Source of the DNA: Actinomycetota bacterium
Lineage (GTDB): Bacteria > Pseudomonadota > Gammaproteobacteria > Burkholderiales > Rhodocyclaceae
Assembly (NCBI GenBank): GCA_050259815.1
Contig: JBLNBI010000222.1
Span: 1 to 14,429 of the forward strand
Direction: 5' to 3'
Length of the DNA stretch: 14,429 nt
In this document: one piece after another, positions 72 through 14,383 of the stretch
How positions within the stretch are numbered: the first letter of the stretch is position 1
Layout: each line of letters opens with the position of its first letter
The notes under the pieces: model-generated
Databases searched by the model: none
What the model was told of the DNA's origin: nothing
Seen by the model: the letters and a program-made list of their open reading frames with translations, nothing else
Made by a program: the position numbers and the translations under genes

Positions 72-2246
72 ATGGGCCTCATCGTCAACCTGGCCTCCTA
101 CCTCTCCCAGCTGTCGCTGACCAATCTTCGCCTGAGGGAAAGCCAGGGGCAGATGGAGGCCCTGATCAACGCACTGCCGGACCCTATCTGGCTCAAGGAC
201 ACGGAGGGCCGTTTCCAGGCCTGCAACCGCGCCTTCGAGCGCATGCTCGGCAGTTCCGCCGACCGGATTCTCGGCAAGACCGACCACGATTTCTTTCCCG
301 AGGCGATCGCCCGGTTCTTCCGCAGCAAGGACGAAGAGGCGCTGGCGGCGGGCCAGCCTAGCAGCAACGAGGAGTGGATTCCCCTGGCTTCGACCGGAGA
401 ATCCATTCTCGTCGAGACGGTCAAGGCGCCCCTGCCGGGAATGACCGGCGAACCGGTCGGCGTCCTGGGCATTGCGCGGGACATCACCGAGCGCAAACAG
501 GCCGAAGATCATCTGCGCCTGATGTCCAAGGTCTTTTCCAACAGCGGCGAAGCCATCCTGATCACCGACTCGAACAACAGGATCCTGGCCGTCAACAAGG
601 AATTCACCAAGCTCACGGGTTATAGCCCGGAAGAGGTCTACGGACGGAACCCGAGCATGCTGTCCGCGGGGAAAGCCTCCCGCGAAGTGTATGAGGAAAT
701 GTGGTCTTCGCTGGCCGCCAACGACTACTGGCAGGGCGAACTCTGGGACCGCCGGAAGTCCGGCGATCCGTATCCGAAGCGTCTTTCCATCTCCGTGGTC
801 CGCGACGAACGGGGCAACGTCACCAATTACATCGGCCTGTTCCAGGACATCACCAAAACCAAGGCGGCCGAAGACAAGATCCGCCATCTGGCCCATCACG
901 ACGCCCTGACCGGCCTGCCCAATCGTTTCAGCCTGTACCAGCGGATGGAGCAATCCATCGCCTTTGCGCGACGCTTCGATAAACGGGTCGCCGTCCTGCT
1001 GATCGACCTCGACCGGTTCAAGTCCATCAACGACACCCTCGGCCACAACGTGGGCGATCAGTTGCTGATCCAGGTTGCCTCCCGCCTCAGTCAGTCGGTG
1101 CGGCAAACCGACATCGTCGCCCGCCTGGGCGGTGATGAATTCGTTATCGTCCTGACGGGAATCGAACTCGGCCGGCATGCGACCGAAATCGCCGACAAGA
1201 TCGTCCAGCAGATTTCCCTTCCCTACAGCATCGCCGGCCATGTGCTGCGCACTTCTCCCAGTGTAGGTATCTGCCTGTGCCCGGATGACGCTCTGGAGAT
1301 CAACGATCTGATCAAGAACGCGGACATCGCCATGTATCAGGCCAAGGCGCTCGGCCGCGGGAACTACCAGTGCTATACGGAAGGCATGCGGGCGGAGGTG
1401 GCCCGACGGGTCACCGCCGAAAAGGAATTGGAAGCCGCGCTGGACCAGGGCCAGTTCGTCCTGCATTACCAGCCGCAAATCGATCTGGCAACCGGCAGCG
1501 TCACCGGCATGGAAGCCTTGATCCGCTGGCAGCATCCAAGCCGCGGGCTGGTTTTTCCGGGGGACTTCATTCCCGTTGCCGAAGAGACCAACCTGATCAT
1601 CCCTCTGGGCAAGTGGGTACTCGAAGAAGCCTGCCGGCAGTTGAAAGATTGGCATCAGATGGGGCTGGCTCACCTCACTGTTTCGGTCAATCTCAGCGCC
1701 GTCCAATTCGAGGACATCGCCTTGCCGACTCTGGTAGCCAATGTGCTGGAGACCTGCGGACTGCCTCCCCACAGCCTCCATCTCGAAATTACCGAGTCGA
1801 TGGCCATGAGGCGTCCGGAAGACAGCATCCGCATGATGAACACCCTGGCGGATATCGGCGTGAAACTGGCCTTGGACGACTTCGGCACCGGCTACTCTTC
1901 TTTAGCCTATTTGAAGCTCTTCCCCCTGGATATCATCAAGATCGACCGGGCCTTCGTCAAAGATCTCGAAACCGACGAGAACAACGCGGCCATCTGCGAA
2001 ATGACCATGCTGCTCGCCCAGAAGCTGGGCAAGCGGGTAGTGGCCGAAGGGGTCGAAACCGAGGACCAGCGTCGATTCCTGTCGGAGATCGGCTGCCAGG
2101 AGATTCAAGGTTATCTCTACAGCAAGCCCTTGCCTGCGCCTCGGGCGGCGGCGTTCGCCGAAGGCTTTTCCGTGGCGGAAGCTTGCGACTTGGCTTCAGC
2201 GGATGTGCAACACTTCCCAGCGAAGTCGGTCCAATCGAAACCTTAG
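72..2246 (+). CDS. PAS/PAC-PAS-GGDEF-EAL c-di-GMP signalling protein (diguanylate cyclase/phosphodiesterase)
   Basis: 724-aa ORF. GGDEF motif intact (RLGGDEFVIV). EAL motif intact (EALIRWQHP), plus the DDFGTGYSSL and KIDRAFV EAL catalytic motifs. The N-terminal ~290 aa carry PAS-like repeats. Stop TAG at 2244-2246. Confidence 0.9.
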   Translation: MGLIVNLASYLSQLSLTNLRLRESQGQMEALINALPDPIWLKDTEGRFQACNRAFERMLGSSADRILGKTDHDFFPEAIARFFRSKDEEALAAGQPSSNEEWIPLASTGESILVETVKAPLPGMTGEPVGVLGIARDITERKQAEDHLRLMSKVFSNSGEAILITDSNNRILAVNKEFTKLTGYSPEEVYGRNPSMLSAGKASREVYEEMWSSLAANDYWQGELWDRRKSGDPYPKRLSISVVRDERGNVTNYIGLFQDITKTKAAEDKIRHLAHHDALTGLPNRFSLYQRMEQSIAFARRFDKRVAVLLIDLDRFKSINDTLGHNVGDQLLIQVASRLSQSVRQTDIVARLGGDEFVIVLTGIELGRHATEIADKIVQQISLPYSIAGHVLRTSPSVGICLCPDDALEINDLIKNADIAMYQAKALGRGNYQCYTEGMRAEVARRVTAEKELEAALDQGQFVLHYQPQIDLATGSVTGMEALIRWQHPSRGLVFPGDFIPVAEETNLIIPLGKWVLEEACRQLKDWHQMGLAHLTVSVNLSAVQFEDIALPTLVANVLETCGLPPHSLHLEITESMAMRRPEDSIRMMNTLADIGVKLALDDFGTGYSSLAYLKLFPLDIIKIDRAFVKDLETDENNAAICEMTMLLAQKLGKRVVAEGVETEDQRRFLSEIGCQEIQGYLYSKPLPAPRAAAFAEGFSVAEACDLASADVQHFPAKSVQSKP

Positions 2247-6308: not shown

Positions 6309-6785
6309 TGTCATATCGCCGGAAACCGGCATGATTACGGGCTTTTGGAAACTTAGGCGAGGTGACCATGGCTGCTAAAAATGCGTGAAAAGCGGCGCGC
6401 CAGTACATTAGCATAACGCTCATCTTGTATGTCTGCTATGAGCAGCAACAGCCAAGGTCCGCTCCTGGCCGGAAGCGCCTGTTGGGGTTCCTTCCCCCAA
6501 AGCAGACAGTGATCTAAACCAGTCCTATTCAACGACCGCGATCGGGCTCTTACTTAAGACGTGTGCCCCCGGCCAGGAGCCGCCCGTCACTATCTCTACT
6601 GAGCAACCATCCAAACGACCGCGGTGCTGAGCGAACTGCCAGTCAAGGCGGATAATTCGGCCTCATGTTGAGATCCACATAAGGCCGACATTCCACCCGT
6701 GAAAAGTCGTCTTGGATGGAAAGCGTTACTGCGATTCGATCGATAGCCAGACTCCGCTCGTGAGACTGATGTATCTTTGCCGCCC

Positions 6786-7379
6786 ATGAACTACCTGGCT
6801 CATGGCTTTCTTGCCGGTTCCGTTCCTGCGTTGGTTGTCGGTGGGGTTGCCGGCGACTGGGTCAAAGGACCGCTGCCCGGCCTCCTGCCGCCGGATTTGG
6901 CGCAGGGCGTGGCGCTGCACCGGGCCATCGACGCCTTCGCGGAAACCCATCCCGCCTTTTGCCGTAGCCGGGCGAGGATGTCGGCCGGGCGCCGTCGTTA
7001 TGCGGGGGTTCTGGTTGATATCTTCTACGATCATCTGCTGGCCCGTGACTGGTCAGAATTCAGCGATGAAGGGCTCAATGCCTACTGTTCAGGGGTGTAT
7101 CGGCAGATCGGGCTTCGCCTGCATGAGTTGCCCGAGTCGTCTCAAGGCGCGTTAGCGCTGATGGCCCGCGAAGACTGGCTACAGAGCTATCGTGACCTGA
7201 CCGGCATTGCCGATGTTCTGGACCGCATGTCGCAGCGGGCAAGACAGCCCAATCCGCTGGCCGGCGGCGAGCAGGAGTTCATGGCCGATCCTTTGGGTTT
7301 CTCCGATGATTTTCGCTGCTGGCTCGAGGATGCCAAGCGCTTCACCGAAGGCTGGCGGGCCAACGTTTTCGGATTGTGA
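6786..7379 (+). CDS. acpH: Acyl carrier protein phosphodiesterase (AcpH family)
   Basis: MNYLAHGFLA... N-terminus. Also HRAIDAF, DIFYDHLLARDWSEF and WLQSYRDL blocks that match the E. coli AcpH pattern (MNFLAHLHLA...HRRID...DVMWDHFLSRHWSQL...WLVRYRDM). Confidence 0.75.
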   Translation: MNYLAHGFLAGSVPALVVGGVAGDWVKGPLPGLLPPDLAQGVALHRAIDAFAETHPAFCRSRARMSAGRRRYAGVLVDIFYDHLLARDWSEFSDEGLNAYCSGVYRQIGLRLHELPESSQGALALMAREDWLQSYRDLTGIADVLDRMSQRARQPNPLAGGEQEFMADPLGFSDDFRCWLEDAKRFTEGWRANVFGL

Positions 7380-7470
7380 CGGCGGTACGAGCACAGGGCT
7401 CGCATCACTTAAGCTAATCAATACCGAATCGGCCGCTCAATGCTACGAGTAGCCGCTGAAGAGCCGCTTA

Positions 7471-7497
7471 CCGACGTATTGCCGACGTATTGCCGAC
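7471..7497. repeat. Tandem 11-bp repeat CCGACGTATTG x2.5
   Basis: ccgacgtattg ccgacgtattg ccgac in the convergent acpH/rtcA intergenic region. An adjacent direct repeat AGCCGCT-gaag-AGCCGCT lies at 7451-7468. Confidence 0.8.
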
Positions 7498-7620
7498 TGA
7501 ATTGACCTGCAGACCGGATGGCCGTAAAGGCCGAGCACCCGACAATCAACCAAAGCATCCCTGCATGCTGCGAAACGGGTGGCGAGGACACAGCGCGGCG
7601 ACCATCTCAAGCCCTTTCCT

Positions 7621-8646
7621 TCAGGCCACCGCAACGCTATACCCCGTATCCCCCTCCTCGCACCGAAACTCCACCGCCAGAAACTTCTCGATCACTTCGA
7701 TATTGGTGTGCAGATGCGAGGACAGCGTCGTCGTCGTGAAACTGCCCTTCCCCGCTAGGGCCAGGGGAAGGAGTAGCTGGTCGGCAAGGTGCTCGCCGAC
7801 CGCGCCAGCCCCATCACGGAATTGGCGCACCCGCTTGGCGACGCCATCGGCGACGCGCTCCGCCGGCAGGCCCCGCTCGCCAAAGCCGGTGAAGACTTCG
7901 GCAAAACCGGGATAGACCAGATCGACCATGAGCGCATTGCCCGGCCCTTCACGGGAGGGCAATTGGCGCAGTTGCCGCTCGACCGGCCCCAACTGGGCGG
8001 CCAGGCGGTCGAGTTCCCGGAGGGCCACGTCGCCCGGCACCCCGGCAACCACAGCCGTCGCCCGGATTTCCTGCAGTTCGCCGCGAGTCTCCAGCGACAG
8101 GGCCGACAGGCTTCCACCGCCACCCGCCAGCGGCCGGATGCTCGCCTTCACCTCGCCGCCCCCGGCCGGATAGAAACCGTGGCGGAGCAGTTCGATGTCC
8201 ATATCGACGCCCATGGCGCGAACCAGCGGCAGCCAGGAGCGGATCAGGAAGTCTGCCGGCGGCGCAGCCGGGTTGTGGGTGCCGCCGCTCACGGTCAGGG
8301 TGGCCGGCCCGTCGGCGAACCACAGCGCCGGCGCGACGGTTTGCAGGACCAGGGTGCAGCTCCCCGCCGTACCGATGGCGAAGCGGTAATCGCCGCCCCG
8401 AATGCGGCCCGGCGCAAAGGAGAGCGTCTGCGAGCCCGGCGCCGCGCCCTCCACCTCGGCCCCGCAAACCTCCGCCGCCGCTTTGACGGCGGTCAGGTGC
8501 TGGCGCAGCAGCCCCGGCTTGGCGCGCCCGGCACGGATCTTCTCGATGCGAAAGGGCGTGCCCGTGATCATCGAGAGGCTCAAGGCCGTGCGCAGGATCT
8601 GGCCCCCGCCCTCTCCCCGGGAGCCGTCCAGTTCTATCGTTTGCAT
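7621..8646 (-). CDS. rtcA: RNA 3'-terminal phosphate cyclase RtcA
   Basis: 341 aa. N-terminus MQTIELDGSRGEGGGQILRTALSLSMITGTPFRIEKIRAGRAKPGL, which includes the GGGQILR pattern of RtcA. AAGGAAA SD. Last gene of the operon. Confidence 0.9.
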   Translation of the reverse strand: MQTIELDGSRGEGGGQILRTALSLSMITGTPFRIEKIRAGRAKPGLLRQHLTAVKAAAEVCGAEVEGAAPGSQTLSFAPGRIRGGDYRFAIGTAGSCTLVLQTVAPALWFADGPATLTVSGGTHNPAAPPADFLIRSWLPLVRAMGVDMDIELLRHGFYPAGGGEVKASIRPLAGGGGSLSALSLETRGELQEIRATAVVAGVPGDVALRELDRLAAQLGPVERQLRQLPSREGPGNALMVDLVYPGFAEVFTGFGERGLPAERVADGVAKRVRQFRDGAGAVGEHLADQLLLPLALAGKGSFTTTTLSSHLHTNIEVIEKFLAVEFRCEEGDTGYSVAVA

Positions 8647-8682
8647 GTTGCTTGTTTCCTTCTTGTTGTTATGTAGCCGAAC

Positions 8683-9507
8683 CTAGTCCGGTGAACGGGA
8701 GAGCACGGTTTCCATCAGGTAGGCGTCCAGCAATGCCGCGTCGCCCTCCGGCTTGCGGAAATCCGGCAGGCGGTCGGCGCAGGCCCGTTCCAGCTCGCCC
8801 GCTATGAAGGCGTGGATGGCCGGCCAGCGGGGACCGCATTCGGCTTCGCCGGCCCGCATCTTCACCGCCAGCAGTCCGTTGATCTCGTCGAGCAAGACAG
8901 GGTCGTCCACCATGGCCGAAGCCAGATCGGCAAAGCGCATGGGCGGCATGCCCAGGCCCCGGTCGATCCACTGCACCGCCAGGAGCGGACGCAGGACGTA
9001 GAGGTACTTCTTGAGGCGCACCGCCTCGCCCAGCAGATGCTCGCGGAAGTTCTTCCGGGCCATGGCGAGGTAGTGGTAGCGCCCCCGCTGCGGCGAAAAG
9101 AAGGCCGGCGCCAGGGAGCGCAGGCGCCCGGCGGCCGCCGGGTCTTCCCGATAGACGAGGGGCGAATCGAGCCATTCCAGCAGGGTCGGGTTGGAGCGGC
9201 GCAGCAGGCGCAGGGCCTTACGCAGCTCCCAGCCGCCGACATCGAGTTCGTCGCTGATGGGCCGTTCGATCACATCCCGCTTCGCTTCTACCCCAAGGTA
9301 CCAGGGCAGGCGATGCACGTAGATGAAGCGCACGTCGTAATCGCTGTCCGGCGACGCGAAGCCCCAGCCCCGGCTGCCGGATTCGCAGGCGAAGAGGACG
9401 CGCACGTCGTGCTCGGCTTCAATCTCCGCCAGGGTTTCCATCACCCGCTGCCGCACCGCCGGTTCGACCGGGTGGGCGCTCAGCACGGCGGGTTTTTCGA
9501 TCTTCAT
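8683..9507 (-). CDS. RtcB-associated predicted nucleotidyltransferase (Pol-beta superfamily, GS...DxD motif)
   Basis: FACESGSRGWGFASPDSDYDVRFIY is a classic GS-x9-DxD minimal nucleotidyltransferase signature. The start codon is 3 nt after the rtcB stop, so it is translationally coupled. Confidence 0.7.
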   Translation of the reverse strand: MKIEKPAVLSAHPVEPAVRQRVMETLAEIEAEHDVRVLFACESGSRGWGFASPDSDYDVRFIYVHRLPWYLGVEAKRDVIERPISDELDVGGWELRKALRLLRRSNPTLLEWLDSPLVYREDPAAAGRLRSLAPAFFSPQRGRYHYLAMARKNFREHLLGEAVRLKKYLYVLRPLLAVQWIDRGLGMPPMRFADLASAMVDDPVLLDEINGLLAVKMRAGEAECGPRWPAIHAFIAGELERACADRLPDFRKPEGDAALLDAYLMETVLSRSPD

Positions 9508-9510
9508 TTC

Positions 9511-10728
<1,218 letters not shown>

Positions 10729-10796
10729 GATTAATCCTCTTTCAATGCCGCCCGCATGTTAGCGAGGCCGGCGTAATTCGTCTTCAATTGTCGTGT

Positions 10797-11939
10797 CTAG
10801 GTCCATGCCTGGATTTTCACCAGACCGCTCAACACCTGGTCCAGGCCACCGAAGACCGAGATACGGTCGATGCGTTCGGCCACCCGCTCCAGGGTTTCCA
10901 GCTCCTTCAGGCGCAGGGCCGTCGGGTTGTCTTCCATCACCTTGGCGGTGTTCAGCAGCGAACGGGTCGCTGCGGTTTCCTCGCGGCGGCGGATGACGTT
11001 GGCTTCGGCCGACTTCTCGGCCTCCACCACCTGGGCCAGGATCGCCTTCATCTCCCCCGGCAGCACGATGTCTTTGACGCCGACGCTGCCCACCTCGATG
11101 CCGAAGCCCTGGAGCTTCTGCTTCACATGGGCGCCCACCACCTCGTCGATGATCTGCTTGTTCTCCAGCAGTTCATCCAGGGCCCGGGTGCCGACGGCGG
11201 CGCGCAGGCCGAATTGCAGCTCCCGGTAGAGATGCTCGGCCGGCTTGGTCAGCTTCTCGTAGGCGAGCAGCACGTCGGTGAAGCGCCAGGTCGCCGCCAG
11301 GTTGAGCCGCAATCCCACCTTGTCCCGGGACAGGATTTCCTGGCCGGTCACCTCCATGGCCTGGAGGCGCATATCCACCAGCTCCACCTGCACGTCGCGG
11401 TTGAAGCGCCAGAAGACTTCGACTCCCGGCTGCATCAAGCGCTCCACCTTGCCATCGACGCGCAGCACGCCCACGTGATAGGCCGGCACCTGGGCGACCA
11501 GGAGCGCACACGCACCGGCGACCGGACGGCCGCGCAGGGCCGGCTGCATGAGGTGGGACGCCACTTCCGGCGCCACGCCGTAGCCGCGGCGCAGATCGAC
11601 GCGCTCCAGCCGGTGCCGGAGCAGCCCCTTCCAGAAGAAGCGCCGGCTGGCCGGGGGCAGGACCTCCACCAGGACATCGTTCTCGTAGCGCAATCCCGCC
11701 TCGTCCTCGCTCAATTCCATGCACTCGAAGCTCGAGGCGGCGGTTTCCGGTTCGTTTTGCAGCAGGTAATCCACGGTGGCGACATCGGTCATCGGCGCAT
11801 CCAGCTTCCAGGTAACCAGGGAAAGCCGCGACATCGAGTCGATGAAATAGTGGCGGCCGGCATTCAGGATGCGCTCGTAATCGCCATCGCGCAGCAATAC
11901 GCCCTTTTCATTCTTTTTCACCACAAAACGCTTCAACAT
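10797..11939 (-). CDS. SPFH/band-7 (slipin/flotillin-like) domain protein with unique ~170-aa N-terminal region; first gene of rtc operon
   Basis: 380 aa from ATG 11937-11939 with a strong SD (TAAGGAGAAG). The C-terminal half carries SPFH hallmarks (…KDIVLPGEMKAILAQVVEAEKSAEANVIRRREETAATRSL…ALRLKELETLERVAE). The ORF-track extension to 12104 runs into the ~80% GC leader and is not credible. Confidence 0.7.
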   Translation of the reverse strand: MLKRFVVKKNEKGVLLRDGDYERILNAGRHYFIDSMSRLSLVTWKLDAPMTDVATVDYLLQNEPETAASSFECMELSEDEAGLRYENDVLVEVLPPASRRFFWKGLLRHRLERVDLRRGYGVAPEVASHLMQPALRGRPVAGACALLVAQVPAYHVGVLRVDGKVERLMQPGVEVFWRFNRDVQVELVDMRLQAMEVTGQEILSRDKVGLRLNLAATWRFTDVLLAYEKLTKPAEHLYRELQFGLRAAVGTRALDELLENKQIIDEVVGAHVKQKLQGFGIEVGSVGVKDIVLPGEMKAILAQVVEAEKSAEANVIRRREETAATRSLLNTAKVMEDNPTALRLKELETLERVAERIDRISVFGGLDQVLSGLVKIQAWT

Positions 11940-11976
11940 TTTTCTTCTCCTTAGTCTTCCCACATTTACATTGTTT

Positions 11977-12187
11977 GCCGGCGGGCGCCGGCCCGGCGGG
12001 CCTCCGGGACGGCGCAGGCGGGGGAGCCGGCCGGCGGGTGCGGCGCCGATCCCCAACACCCCTCCAGCGCCTTGCGCCGGAGCCGGCGGTAGACCGTGCC
12101 CCACCCTGCCGGCCCGCCCTGCCGCTTGCGCGGGCCAGGAACCGGCCGGGCCGGCGGCGGGTGCTTGCGCATTCCGCAGCCGGCGGG
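11977..12187 (-). repeat. GC-rich (~80%) leader segment with >=5 copies of GCCGGCGG(G)
   Basis: Occurrences at 11977, 11992 (variant), 12030, 12072, 12152 and 12179. The segment lies between the tRNA-like elements and the SPFH start, inside the predicted sigma54 transcript. Confidence 0.6.
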
Positions 12188-12217
12188 TACTGCTGTATTC
12201 ACTGTCGTGACAGGACA

Positions 12218-12291
12218 GTTTTGGAGCGGGAATCGAACCCGCGACCGACCGCTGGTTAGGCGGTTGCTCTACCCGACTGAGCTATCCAAAC
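12218..12291 (-). ncRNA. tRNA-like element 1: near-complete cloverleaf (anticodon AAC) with G1:A72 mismatch, C37, no CCA; tRNA mimic or pseudogene
   Basis: The - strand RNA is GUUUGGAUAGCUCAGUCGGGUAGAGCAACCGCCUAACCAGCGGUCGGUCGCGGGUUCGAUUCCCGCUCCAAAAC. It has a canonical D-arm (GCUC-AGUCGGGUA-GAGC with G18G19). It has a canonical T-arm (GCGGG-UUCGAUU-CCCGC). The anticodon stem is ACCGC/GCGGU with loop CUAACCA. The acceptor is 6/7 paired and AU-rich. It is followed by UGU, not CCA. Confidence 0.55.
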
Positions 12292-12342
12292 GGAGCGTGG
12301 AGGGAATCGAACCCTACGGACCCGCCGACCGGGCACGCACTC
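12292..12342 (-). ncRNA. tRNA-like element 2: mini acceptor + D-like hairpin + T-arm, no anticodon arm; abuts element 1
   Basis: The - strand RNA is GAGUGCG-UG-CCCG-GUCGG-CGGG-UCCG-UAGGG-UUCGAUU-CCCUC-CACGCUC-C. The T-loop is UUCGAUU. The acceptor-like stem is GAGUGCG/CACGCUC, 6/7 paired with one U-G. Its 3' discriminator is immediately followed by G1 of element 1. Confidence 0.4.
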
Positions 12343-12464
12343 GACCACAACTTGCTGCGGCGGCATACGCGAAAGCGACAGAAGCGAATCCGGCTTGCGC
12401 GCACCGGCGGGGTCTCACCCCCTGCCCGTGGGCCATTGCAGCGACGTTGCGATCGCCTTATGCA

Positions 12465-12573: not shown

Positions 12574-12602
12574 TTGAATATAGAATTTGCGATAACTATT
12601 TA
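12574..12602 (+). promoter_or_regulatory. Candidate sigma70 promoter of rtcR (TTGAAT-17-TATTTA)
   Basis: -35 at 12574-12579, 17-nt spacer, -10 at 12597-12602. The ATG is at 12619, so the leader would be short with a weak SD. Confidence 0.3.
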
Positions 12603-12618
12603 TCTTTCTGGATAATCC

Positions 12619-14208
12619 ATGAAGCGCAACGTAGTCATTGGCTTCCTCGGCACCCAACTCGATTACGGCGGCAAGGGAGTGGCCCGCTGGGAAAAATGGC
12701 GCCCGACCGTGGCCCTCTGCCAACAGGAAGACCTGGTGGTGCATCGTCTGGAACTGCTCCACGACGCCCGCAGCCGGGGACTGGCGGAGCGCATCGTCAA
12801 CGACATCGCGGCGGTATCCCCGGAAACCGAAGTGCGCCGGGTGGAGCGGGAATTGCGCGACCCCTGGGATTTCGAGGAGGTCTACACCTCCCTGCACGAC
12901 TTCGCCCGCGCCTACCCGTTTGACCCCGAGAACGAGGATTACCTCATCCACATCACCACCGGCACCCATGTGGCGCAAATCTGCTGGTTCCTGCTGGCCG
13001 AGGCCCGCTACCTGCCGGCGCGGCTGGTGCAGACCTCGCCGCCCCGCAAGAAGGAGACGGCCAACAGCATCGGGCGCTACGAGATCATCGACCTGGACCT
13101 GTCCCGCTACAACCAGATTGCCCAGCGCTTCGCCCGGGAGCACGACGACAACGTTTCCTTCCTCAAATCCGGCATCGCCACCCGCAACCCGGCTTTCAAC
13201 CGCATGATCGAGCGCATCGAACAGGTGGCCGGCCGCTCCCGGGCGCCCCTGCTGCTGATCGGGCCGACGGGGGCGGGCAAGTCCTTCCTCGCCCGCCGGG
13301 TGTATGAATTGAAGCGCCAGCGGCAGCGGCTTTCCGGGCGCTTCATCGAGGTCAACTGCGCCACCCTGCGGGGCGATTCCGCCATGTCGACACTCTTCGG
13401 CCACGTCCGCGGCGCCTTCACCGGGGCCCAGACGGAACGGCCGGGCCTGCTGCGTGCCGCCGACGGCGGGCTGCTCTTCCTGGACGAGATCGGCGAACTG
13501 GGCCTGGACGAGCAGGCCATGCTCCTGAAGGCCATCGAGGAAAAGCGCTTCTTCCCCTTCGGCGCCGACCGGGAGGCGGAAAGCGACTTCCAGCTCATCG
13601 CCGGCACCCACCGCGACCTGCACCGCTGGGTGGCCGAGGGACGTTTCCGGGAAGACCTCTACGCCCGCATCAACCTGTGGACCTTCGACCTACCCGGCCT
13701 CGCCGCCCGGCCGGAGGACATCGAGCCCAACCTGGATTTCGAACTGGAACGCTTCGCCCGGGAACAGGGCGAGCAGGTGCGCTTCAATGTCGAAGCCAAA
13801 CGCCGCTACCTGGCCTTCGCCGGCAGCCCGGAGGCCCGCTGGGCGGGCAATTTCCGCGAACTCACCGCCTCCGTCACCCGCATGGCCACCCTGGCCGAAG
13901 CCGGGCGCATCACCGAGGACAACGTGCGGGAGGAAATCGAGCGCCTGCGCGCCACCTGGACGGACGGCAAGCCTCCCGACATCGTCACCGAGGTGCTGGG
14001 CGACAAGGCCGACGAACTGGACCTCTTCGACCGCTGCCAACTCGCCGCCGTCATTGCCGCCTGCCGCACTGCCGACAGCCTCTCCGCCGCCGGCCGGCAG
14101 CTTTTCGCCATCTCCCGGCAGGGGAAGAAGCAGCCCAACGACGCGGATCGGCTACGCAAATACCTAGCGCGGTTTGGGCTGGATTTCGAGAGAGTGGCGG
14201 GGAGGTGA
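12619..14208 (+). CDS. rtcR: Sigma54-dependent transcriptional activator RtcR (CARF domain + AAA+ + HTH)
   Basis: 529 aa. N-terminal CARF-like region (MKRNVVIGFLGTQLDYGGKGVARWEKWRPTVALCQQEDL...). Walker A GPTGAGKS. GAFTGA motif (HVRGAFTGAQ). The overall sequence closely parallels E. coli RtcR. Confidence 0.95.
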   Translation: MKRNVVIGFLGTQLDYGGKGVARWEKWRPTVALCQQEDLVVHRLELLHDARSRGLAERIVNDIAAVSPETEVRRVERELRDPWDFEEVYTSLHDFARAYPFDPENEDYLIHITTGTHVAQICWFLLAEARYLPARLVQTSPPRKKETANSIGRYEIIDLDLSRYNQIAQRFAREHDDNVSFLKSGIATRNPAFNRMIERIEQVAGRSRAPLLLIGPTGAGKSFLARRVYELKRQRQRLSGRFIEVNCATLRGDSAMSTLFGHVRGAFTGAQTERPGLLRAADGGLLFLDEIGELGLDEQAMLLKAIEEKRFFPFGADREAESDFQLIAGTHRDLHRWVAEGRFREDLYARINLWTFDLPGLAARPEDIEPNLDFELERFAREQGEQVRFNVEAKRRYLAFAGSPEARWAGNFRELTASVTRMATLAEAGRITEDNVREEIERLRATWTDGKPPDIVTEVLGDKADELDLFDRCQLAAVIAACRTADSLSAAGRQLFAISRQGKKQPNDADRLRKYLARFGLDFERVAGR

Positions 14209-14271: not shown

Positions 14272-14298
14272 TAACTTACTGCTTCGAACTACACCGTG

Positions 14299-14383
14299 GT
14301 GCCCAGGAAGGGACTCGAACCCCCACGCCTTTCGGCGCCAGAACCTAAATCTGGTGCGTCTACCAATTTCGCCACCTGGGCAG
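14299..14383 (-). tRNA. tRNA-Leu (anticodon UAG), 85 nt with long variable arm and encoded CCA
   Basis: The - strand RNA is GCCCAGGUGGCGAAAUUGGUAGACGCACCAGAUUUAGGUUCUGGCGCCGAAAGGCGUGGGGGUUCGAGUCCCUUCCUGGGCACCA. The acceptor GCCCAGG/CCUGGGC is perfect. Anticodon loop UUUAGGU. Discriminator A followed by CCA. Confidence 0.85.

Follow-up and report, generated by a model that had tools for sequence, protein, structure and literature searches.

The 14,429-nucleotide (nt) stretch of DNA considered here (positions 1 to 14,429 of contig JBLNBI010000222.1, assembly GCA_050259815.1), referred to below as the window, carries on its minus strand four genes which encode, in order of transcription, a protein of the SPFH/Band-7 type, the RNA ligase RtcB, the nucleotidyltransferase RlaP and the RNA 3'-terminal phosphate cyclase RtcA. 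The gene for the regulator RtcR lies upstream and diverges from them. Profile and comparative analyses indicate that the four genes constitute a single RNA-repair operon, controlled by RtcR and sigma-54, of the "Band-7 plus tRNA-like RNA" type. An initial annotation of the same DNA had recognized the four genes, with the positions and strand confirmed below, but missed a structured leader with tRNA mimics that lies upstream of the SPFH gene. The latter is thus, as had been proposed, the first protein-coding gene, but the first element of the transcript is the leader RNA.

The rtc locus and its genes

The genes at the locus are the following:

10797-11939, minus strand: SPFH/Band-7 gene ("slipin family"), 380 amino acids (aa), Pfam Band_7
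9511-10728, minus strand: rtcB, 3'-phosphate/2',3'-cyclic-phosphate RNA ligase, PF01139
8683-9507, minus strand: rlaP, Pol-beta-type nucleotidyltransferase, PF10127
7621-8646, minus strand: rtcA, RNA 3'-terminal phosphate cyclase, at the end of the operon, NF003246 and Pfam
12619-14208, plus strand: rtcR, CARF plus AAA+ sigma-54 activator, divergent from the operon, NF038308

Genes were assigned by profile searches against Pfam and NCBIfam, and against defence libraries that included PADLOC. These hidden Markov model searches upheld the two assignments that had been made from the translations alone, that of the SPFH domain (PF01145, E 5.8e-31; score 108 bits, cut-off 23.6) and that of the Pol-beta-type nucleotidyltransferase, which matches the family "RNA repair pathway DNA polymerase beta family" (PF10127, E 1.4e-95, 320 bits against a cut-off of 23) over profile positions 1-248 of 249, and whose translation carries the Pol-beta motif hG[GS]...DxD as G44-S45 ... 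D54-x-D56-x-D58. RtcB covers its profile completely (PF01139, E 1.8e-131, positions 1-426 of 426), and RtcA is recognized by PF01137 (RTC), PF05189 (RTC_insert) and NF003246, the last at 462.5 bits against a cut-off of 352. RtcR scores 861.7 bits with NF038308 (RNA_repair_RtcR; cut-off 650), matches both RtcR (PF06956) and Sigma54_activat in Pfam, and is detected by the PADLOC model RtcR--CARF_AAA_HTH (E 4e-270); the PADLOC defence-system library recognized nothing else. A search of the PDB by sequence yielded no match to a solved RlaP structure.

The start of the SPFH gene is placed at the ATG at 11939, which is preceded at 7 nt by AAGGAG, because the N-terminal sequence MLKRF is common to all 41 aligned homologues. 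The longer open reading frame (ORF) that begins with GTG and reaches 12104 is an over-extension, ruled out by this conserved start. The distance from the SPFH stop codon to the rtcB ATG is 68 nt, with AGAGGA upstream of rtcB; the rtcB TAG is separated from the rlaP ATG by 3 nt, the Shine-Dalgarno (SD) sequence being located within the 3' end of rtcB; and 36 nt separate the rlaP TAG from the rtcA ATG, with GAAGGA upstream of the latter. The two tightest couplings, 3 nt and 36 nt with an SD sequence, had been pointed out in the initial annotation and can be read directly from the sequence. A scan for sigma-70-like promoters inside the operon found none, and the sole terminator match within it, in rtcB, is not credible (one found, 4.3 expected by chance). 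Since the gaps are short and neither an internal promoter nor a credible terminator intervenes, the four genes are read as one operon, as the initial annotation had suggested; the order of the genes among related loci also favors this reading. The gene that follows rtcA encodes AcpH (6777-7379, plus strand) and is convergent with the operon. Past the rtcA stop codon, at 7547-7569 on the minus strand, lies a weak stem-loop, AGCAU-GCAGGG-AUGCU, followed by UUGGUUG; it has fewer than three G-C pairs, and for this reason was not reported by the terminator scan, making it a weak terminator candidate at best.

Conservation of the gene arrangement

Related loci were collected by scanning one genome per species for relatives of the SPFH protein (402 genomes), and the best 80 loci, among which P. 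aeruginosa itself does not figure, were examined. A divergent RtcR gene precedes the SPFH gene in 65 of the 72 loci with enough sequence, and an rtcB gene in the same orientation follows it in 67 of the 75 loci that allowed this test, so that the ensemble of RtcR, leader, SPFH and RtcB is kept in approximately 90% of the 80. What lies downstream is more varied: in the 66 loci with at least 5.5 kb of downstream sequence, the content is RtcB-RlaP-RtcA in 20, RtcB-RtcA in 15, RtcB alone in 13, RtcB-RlaP in 12, and none of the three in 6. The rlaP product is 60-77% identical to those of genes at the same position in 32 of these 66 loci, including that of P. nitroreducens. The order of the operon is conserved across beta- and gammaproteobacteria. 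These comparisons indicate that the window carries the most frequent version of an operon that is both conserved and modular, and that its gene arrangement is not a chance juxtaposition.

One relative carries additional genes within the operon. In locus L003 (Viridibacterium), an ORF of 191 aa with a CxxC...CxxC motif (8137-8712) is located between the SPFH gene and rtcB, a second, of 241 aa (10050-10775), between rtcB and rlaP, and a third, of 108 aa (11669-11995), which resembles a low-molecular-weight phosphatase, between rlaP and rtcA. The last of these could bear on the mismatch in end chemistry between RlaP and RtcB that is discussed below.

Promoter and leader RNA

The intergenic gap between rtcR and the SPFH gene measures 679 nt and contains the following elements, listed in the direction of SPFH transcription:

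12600-12615, unstranded: inverted repeat TTATCC-N6-GATAA, adjoining the rtcR start codon
12466-12481, minus strand: sigma-54 promoter (-24/-12), TGGCATG-CATC-TCGCA, with an inferred transcription start near 12456
12339-12456, minus strand: leader domain 1, approximately 118 nt, nested helices around the conserved GCCCACGGGC...CCGGUGC...GUAUGCCGCC
12293-12340, minus strand: mini tRNA-like unit, in which an acceptor-like stem of 7 bp is joined by a short linker to the T arm GGG-UUCGAUU-CCC
12218-12291, minus strand: cloverleaf tRNA mimic ("band-7-associated tRNA"), Rfam tRNA 52.9 bits, ARAGORN tRNA-Val(AAC)
12202-12217, minus strand: hairpin CUGUC-N7-GACAG, directly after the tRNA mimic
11977-12193, minus strand: leader domain 3, with the conserved GCAGUACCCGCCGGC, the closing helix GCCGGY/RCCGGC, a hairpin capped by GCAA, and a long helix whose tip varies

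Of 68 related intergenic regions, 64 have the promoter consensus TGGCA[CT]G-N4-TNGC at the corresponding position. Its GG and GC columns are invariant in the alignment, and the distance from the promoter to the SPFH ATG in related loci is always 430-560 nt. The inverted repeat beside rtcR is conserved in all 20 aligned loci, where its core ATA/GATAA columns show little or no variation, and it overlaps a sigma-70-like match, TTGCGA-18-GATAAT (12587-12616, plus strand), for rtcR; it may represent an operator, or else belong to the rtcR promoter.

The leader, approximately 517 nt long, would run between about 12456 and 11940. It gives a better fold than shuffled versions of itself (z = -3.84), and its conservation spans Rhodocyclales, Burkholderia and Pseudomonas, with domain 1, the mini tRNA-like unit, the cloverleaf, the hairpin and domain 3 following each other in this order. 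In domain 1, RNAalifold predicted 22 pairs from 53 sequences, 15 of them with compensatory changes; 93.4% of the cells of the alignment pair, as compared with 34-51% when the partners are slid, and the covariation score of 0.449 (at most 0.16 in controls) was reached by none of 500 shuffles. When a covariance model of this domain, R1, was applied to 28 loci outside the training set, it located the domain in 24 of them, approximately 500 nt ahead of the SPFH gene; the other four have no upstream sequence. Domain 3 gave 28 predicted pairs from 41 sequences, every one with compensatory changes, and here 92.2% of the cells pair (35-43% with partners slid), while the covariation score reaches 0.557, against 0.105 or less in controls, and again 0/500 shuffles attain it. 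Its closing helix pairs in 98% of the cells and hardly varies, a single pair showing covariation (CG 7, UA 6, UG 4); in Pseudomonas, the domain holds an extra insertion. The short hairpin that follows the cloverleaf is also kept in the alignments, with changes on both sides of the stem (CUGCC/GGCAG, GGUCC/GGACC). Searched with Rfam 15, the window and nine further loci gave a match only for the cloverleaf, and domains 1 and 3 were left unmatched.

The cloverleaf and the mini tRNA-like unit

In 55 of the 80 loci, ARAGORN detects a counterpart of the cloverleaf between -330 and -255 relative to the SPFH ATG, and the fold is strongly supported: 97.8% of the cells pair (35-53% with partners slid), and covariation is seen at each of the five pairs of the anticodon stem. 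Between loci, the D and T arms hardly change. The region that would serve in decoding, by contrast, drifts, since the "anticodons" read CAT, AAT, GAT, AAC, GAA, ACG or others depending on the locus, or are composed of only two bases, and just 26 of 48 loci have an anticodon loop of 7 nt. The other 22 present a tetraloop or another loop that departs from 7 nt, among them nine with a tetraloop of the GAAA, GCAA or UUCG type and nine with a 6-nt C-GNRA-G loop. Near-invariant arms beside an anticodon loop of variable length, which is often a tetraloop, indicate that the mimic is selected for its shape and not for decoding. The possibility that it is a real tRNA-Val gene was considered and rejected, given its AAC anticodon, the G1:A72 mismatch in the acceptor stem and a CCA end that is not encoded in the window; the non-conserved or tetraloop "anticodon" loops of its relatives are the chief evidence against such a reading. 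The element, which cannot decode, corresponds to the "band-7-associated tRNA" of Burroughs & Aravind, as far as their description is relayed by the papers that cite it.

The mini unit that precedes the cloverleaf has a conserved T arm with four covarying pairs. MAFFT misplaced the 5' strand of its acceptor-like stem, with the consequence that RNAalifold missed the stem, and an anchored search was employed instead. In this search, 42 of 43 loci showed at least 6 of the 7 possible pairs between the acceptor-like strands, a figure biased upward by the choice of the best match in each sequence and made credible only by the fixed position of the strands, 12-17 nt from the T stem, and by the great diversity of their sequences. 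In two Pseudomonas loci (L054 and L071), a complete second cloverleaf occupies the place of the mini unit.

Domain 1 and the mimic also lie upstream of the SPFH gene in five loci in which RtcR and RtcB are not adjacent (L067, L074, L076, L078, L080), all five of which belong to the 24 in which model R1 located domain 1; in L067, L074, L076 and L080, the SPFH gene occupies about 7001-8130. The fact that these elements stay with the SPFH gene where RtcB is not its neighbor shows that the leader RNA goes with the SPFH gene and not with that of the ligase, and their occurrence without adjacent RtcR or RtcB suggests that RNA and SPFH gene behave as a movable module. In three of these loci (L067, L074, L080), domain 1 is not preceded by a sigma-54 promoter. 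In the two loci whose downstream region was inspected (L067 and L074), the SPFH gene is followed by genes for a Tll0287-like/HAMP sensor and a Ser/Thr protein kinase. Arrays of 3-18 ordinary tRNA genes lie 1-6 kb upstream of the SPFH gene in L067, L072, L078 and L080, in four Burkholderiales genomes (Roseateles, Albitalea, Aquabacterium and a metagenome-assembled genome, MAG); they could be spare tRNAs kept beside a tRNA-repair module.

The SPFH/Band-7 protein

The SPFH domain is supported both by sequence and by fold, and the protein is organized as two N-terminal beta units (residues ~1-148), the SPFH domain (~149-294), a long helix and a C-terminus. The AlphaFold2 model, whose predicted local distance difference test (pLDDT) values are 80-90 over residues 1-190, displays successive five-stranded beta units at ~2-45, 71-115 and 146-189, followed by the alpha/beta SPFH core and a long helix at 295-337; beyond residue 335, pLDDT drops to values under 50, and the last 60 residues, though modelled at low confidence, hardly vary in sequence. 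The best structural matches are stomatin, HflK/C, QmcA and flotillin. Relatives number in the thousands, the closest, which are 74-96% identical, coming from Rhodocyclales and other Betaproteobacteria.

The initial annotation described the part of the protein that precedes the SPFH domain as unique and 170 aa long. Neither point could be maintained: approximately 149 aa lie ahead of the Pfam Band_7 match, and this region matches 308 clusters of a library of representatives at 50% identity (E <= 1e-3), often through several stretches per protein. With hhalign, the strands that open the SPFH domain could be aligned with residues 13-33 (E 2e-4, 43% identity), while the remaining pairs of units were not significant with the same program, so that an internal repeat is suggestive only; the N-terminus is probably composed of extra copies of the N-terminal beta unit of the SPFH domain.

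A proposed role for the leader RNA and the SPFH protein

These observations can be assembled into a working mechanism. Broken tRNAs would be sensed by RtcR, as its orthologues do; in Salmonella, the ligand of RtcR is a 5' tRNA fragment (half) that ends in a 2',3'-cyclic phosphate, and halves of tRNA-Leu(UAG) are the best ligand of its CARF domain (PMC7790460). Activation of the sigma-54 promoter by RtcR would then yield a transcript headed by the structured leader of ~517 nt, followed by the SPFH/Band-7, rtcB, rlaP and rtcA coding regions. By analogy with the enzymology of the orthologues, RtcA would form 2',3'-cyclic phosphate ends, RtcB would seal such ends to 5'-OH ends, and RlaP would add one or two nucleotides at trimmed 3'-OH ends. 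A 2025 preprint reports that the RlaP proteins of P. fluorescens and P. aeruginosa add one or two nucleoside monophosphates to RNA 3'-OH ends, that both prefer damaged RNA, and that they are encoded between rtcB and rtcA; its authors propose that RlaP refills nucleotides which "smart" ribotoxins trimmed from cleaved RNA, before ligation (PMC12776372). The suggestion, made in the initial annotation, that the nucleotidyltransferase acts on 3' ends ahead of RtcB agrees in part with this activity, whereas the CCA-like role given there as an example gives way to the proposed refilling. As to the leader, its tRNA-like part could be released by the tRNA-processing machinery and bind the SPFH protein, presumably oligomeric like other SPFH proteins, and the resulting cytoplasmic ribonucleoprotein could act as a cofactor or scaffold for the repair of broken tRNAs, in the manner of Ro60 and Y RNA in rsr-yrlBA-rtcBA. 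We consider it fairly probable that the operon works in this way, that is, that a leader-derived RNA and the SPFH protein form a cytoplasmic cofactor particle for repair by RtcB, RlaP and RtcA.

A number of points weigh against this proposal. The binding of the RNA by the SPFH protein, and an effect of either partner on repair, are suggested only by genomic linkage, and the processing of the leader by its tRNA-like shape alone. The N-terminal beta region of the SPFH protein is not basic (isoelectric point, pI, 6.8; net charge 0), and RNA binding by this region, when judged by charge, finds no support. Domain 3 ends approximately 25 nt before the SPFH SD sequence and could be a cis-acting element of the 5' untranslated region instead of belonging to an RNA that is released. 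The product of RlaP carries a 3'-OH, which RtcB cannot ligate, a gap that the authors of the study themselves note (PMC12776372). Finally, deletion of paFlo8, which encodes the P. aeruginosa orthologue of the SPFH protein, caused no phenotype in assays of growth, virulence, motility, biofilm formation and oxidative stress, all of which covered general conditions, none of them RNA-damaging (PMC13086221).

A larger version of the proposal deserves mention, in which the partner of the SPFH protein would be the whole leader of ~500 nt, with the two covarying domains on either side of the mini unit and the cloverleaf, and a soluble SPFH oligomer bearing the extra N-terminal beta units would, together with this RNA, form a cytoplasmic ring or cage that holds broken tRNAs. 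We regard it as a tentative idea, on balance doubtful; if true, bacteria would have in this particle, which would serve RtcB, RlaP and RtcA, their own equivalent of Ro/Y-RNA or vault particles.

The main rival holds that the leader acts only in cis, by controlling the processing, stability or translation of the mRNA, for instance through RNase P cleavage that sets the 5' end or through gating of the SPFH ribosome-binding site by domain 3, and that the SPFH protein works without RNA. The proximity of domain 3 to the SD sequence and the neutral charge of the SPFH N-terminal region both suit such a function, as does the location of the leader, which always lies between promoter and SPFH ATG with a constant length. 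What this explanation leaves unaccounted for is the near-invariant elbow of D and T arms beside a drifting anticodon loop, as well as the presence of two complete cloverleaves in some species. It is also at odds with the level of the tRNA-like RNA of P. aeruginosa, which reaches about half that of canonical tRNAs without induction, suggesting a stable, separate species (PMC13637947). The fact that the RNA accompanies the SPFH gene in the absence of RtcR and RtcB can be counted on the same side, though a cis element would do so too. A leader restricted to cis action thus seems unlikely, if a serious contender.

A second alternative turns the mimic into a decoy or sensor, which would be cut by ribotoxins, with the cyclic-phosphate fragments feeding back on the CARF domain of RtcR and amplifying induction. 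The tRNA-like 7-nt loop CU-NNN-RA, present in the window and in the 26 relatives mentioned above, speaks for this reading. However, at least 18 of the 48 relatives replace it with GNRA or UUCG tetraloops or with C-GNRA-G, and the "anticodon" is variable, which argues that a bait for anticodon nucleases is not the conserved feature; a decoy, in addition, would leave the SPFH protein without a role. We consider this explanation improbable.

We give similarly little credence to the view, put forward in the initial annotation, that the SPFH protein is a membrane scaffold that localizes or compartmentalizes repair at the membrane. Most characterised SPFH proteins, including stomatin, HflK/C, QmcA and flotillin, are membrane-anchored cages, and it is to these that the structure of the protein is closest. 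Nevertheless, no transmembrane or hairpin segment, signal peptide or lipobox was found in the SPFH protein: its highest 19-residue Kyte-Doolittle window scores 1.56, about the same as that of the soluble RtcB (1.61), and, at residues 140-158, takes in the opening beta strand of the SPFH domain. The N-terminal part carries charges and is predicted, with high confidence, to be beta structure, and the region that usually anchors SPFH proteins is here replaced by ~148 aa of confidently predicted beta structure. Peripheral binding to the membrane may nonetheless occur. It is very improbable that the SPFH gene and rlaP are no more than neighbors of rtcBA, with neither co-transcription nor a functional link: the accessory genes do come and go among loci, but the gaps of 68, 3 and 36 nt contain no internal promoter or credible terminator, the order is kept across beta- and gammaproteobacteria, and the PA4582-PA4585 proteins are co-upregulated in P. 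aeruginosa (PMC13637947).

Other features of the window

Just past the end of rtcR, at 14297-14381 on the minus strand, lies a normal tRNA-Leu(TAG) gene, of interest because of the tRNA-Leu(UAG) halves that bind RtcR best in Salmonella. Such a neighbor of rtcR was not seen in the other loci, and the adjacency is probably a coincidence. Between 3500 and 6500, the G+C content is 0.50-0.55, compared with 0.60-0.73 nearby, and four minus-strand ORFs are present, one with a DUF6630 domain and three without a Pfam or PADLOC match; this segment may be acquired DNA. The left end of the window (72-2246, plus strand) encodes a PAS-PAS-GGDEF-EAL signalling protein that is unrelated to the operon. The MAG from which the contig derives is labelled Actinomycetota, whereas the close relatives of its SPFH, RtcR and RtcB proteins all come from Rhodocyclales or other Betaproteobacteria, which suggests that the contig was probably mis-binned.

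Comparison with known RNA-repair systems

The initial annotation set the arrangement apart from the canonical E. coli operon and implied that it was new. The association of a Band-7 protein, a tRNA-like RNA and RlaP has already been described, and the window is one more example of it. According to the papers that cite their work, Burroughs & Aravind (Nucleic Acids Res 2016) named RlaP for its association with RNA ligases (PMC12776372) and predicted that a Band-7 protein and a tRNA-like RNA form a cofactor pair beside RtcB, which they likened to Ro60 and Y RNA (bioRxiv 10.1101/312249); as of this 2018 preprint, the band-7-associated tRNA was without experimental validation. With the systems so described, the window shares the Band-7 gene beside RtcB, the adjoining tRNA-like gene and RlaP, and no difference in kind is apparent from these accounts.

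A close system under experimental study is that of P. aeruginosa, whose locus comprises PA4581 (rtcR), PA4581.1, PA4582 (PaFlo8), PA4583 (rtcB), PA4584 (rlaP) and PA4585 (rtcA), and equals the window in gene order and in the divergent regulator. PaFlo8, the orthologue of the SPFH protein, was reported in 2026 to be embedded in this rtc locus (PMC13086221). PA4581.1, annotated as "tRNA-Arg4", lies between rtcR and the rtc genes, is without CCA, as is its counterpart in the window, and is expressed, as detected by quantitative reverse-transcription PCR; the same work reports that the PA4582-PA4585 proteins rise together (PMC13637947, 2026). In P. paraeruginosa, P. nitroreducens, P. brassicae and P. 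aegrilactucae, the SPFH protein is 63-66% identical to that of the window and RlaP, where present, 60-63%. The window differs from the Pseudomonas loci in its Rhodocyclales-like host lineage, in a domain 3 without their insertion, and in a mini unit where some Pseudomonas species have a full second cloverleaf.

The Salmonella rsr-yrlBA-rtcBA operon resembles the window in its RtcR/sigma-54 control and in the presence, before rtcBA, of a gene for a ring- or scaffold-type protein and of a non-coding RNA with a tRNA-like domain, but in the window the RNA is located upstream of the protein gene rather than between it and rtcB. Membership in the Y RNA/Ro60 family was considered and rejected, since the YrlA model scores 26.8 bits on the window against a gathering score of 69 and Pfam detects no Ro60/TROVE domain in any protein of the operon; the relationship is one of analogy only. 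The E. coli rtcBA operon and its divergent rtcR share with the window RtcR, the sigma-54 promoter, RtcB and RtcA; the E. coli locus is not known to have an SPFH gene, RlaP or a tRNA-like leader, all three of which are present in the window.

Relative to the 2016 description, as far as it can be gathered from the papers that cite it, what the present comparison adds is that the mimic sits within a covarying leader of ~517 nt under a predicted RtcR/sigma-54 promoter. This sharpens two questions, namely what an SPFH protein devoid of a membrane anchor contributes to RNA repair, and what an RNA that mimics tRNA does beside it, and the comparative data provide concrete constructs and predictions for pull-down, structural and ribotoxin-survival work in tractable relatives, P. 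aeruginosa, Burkholderia and Azoarcus among them.

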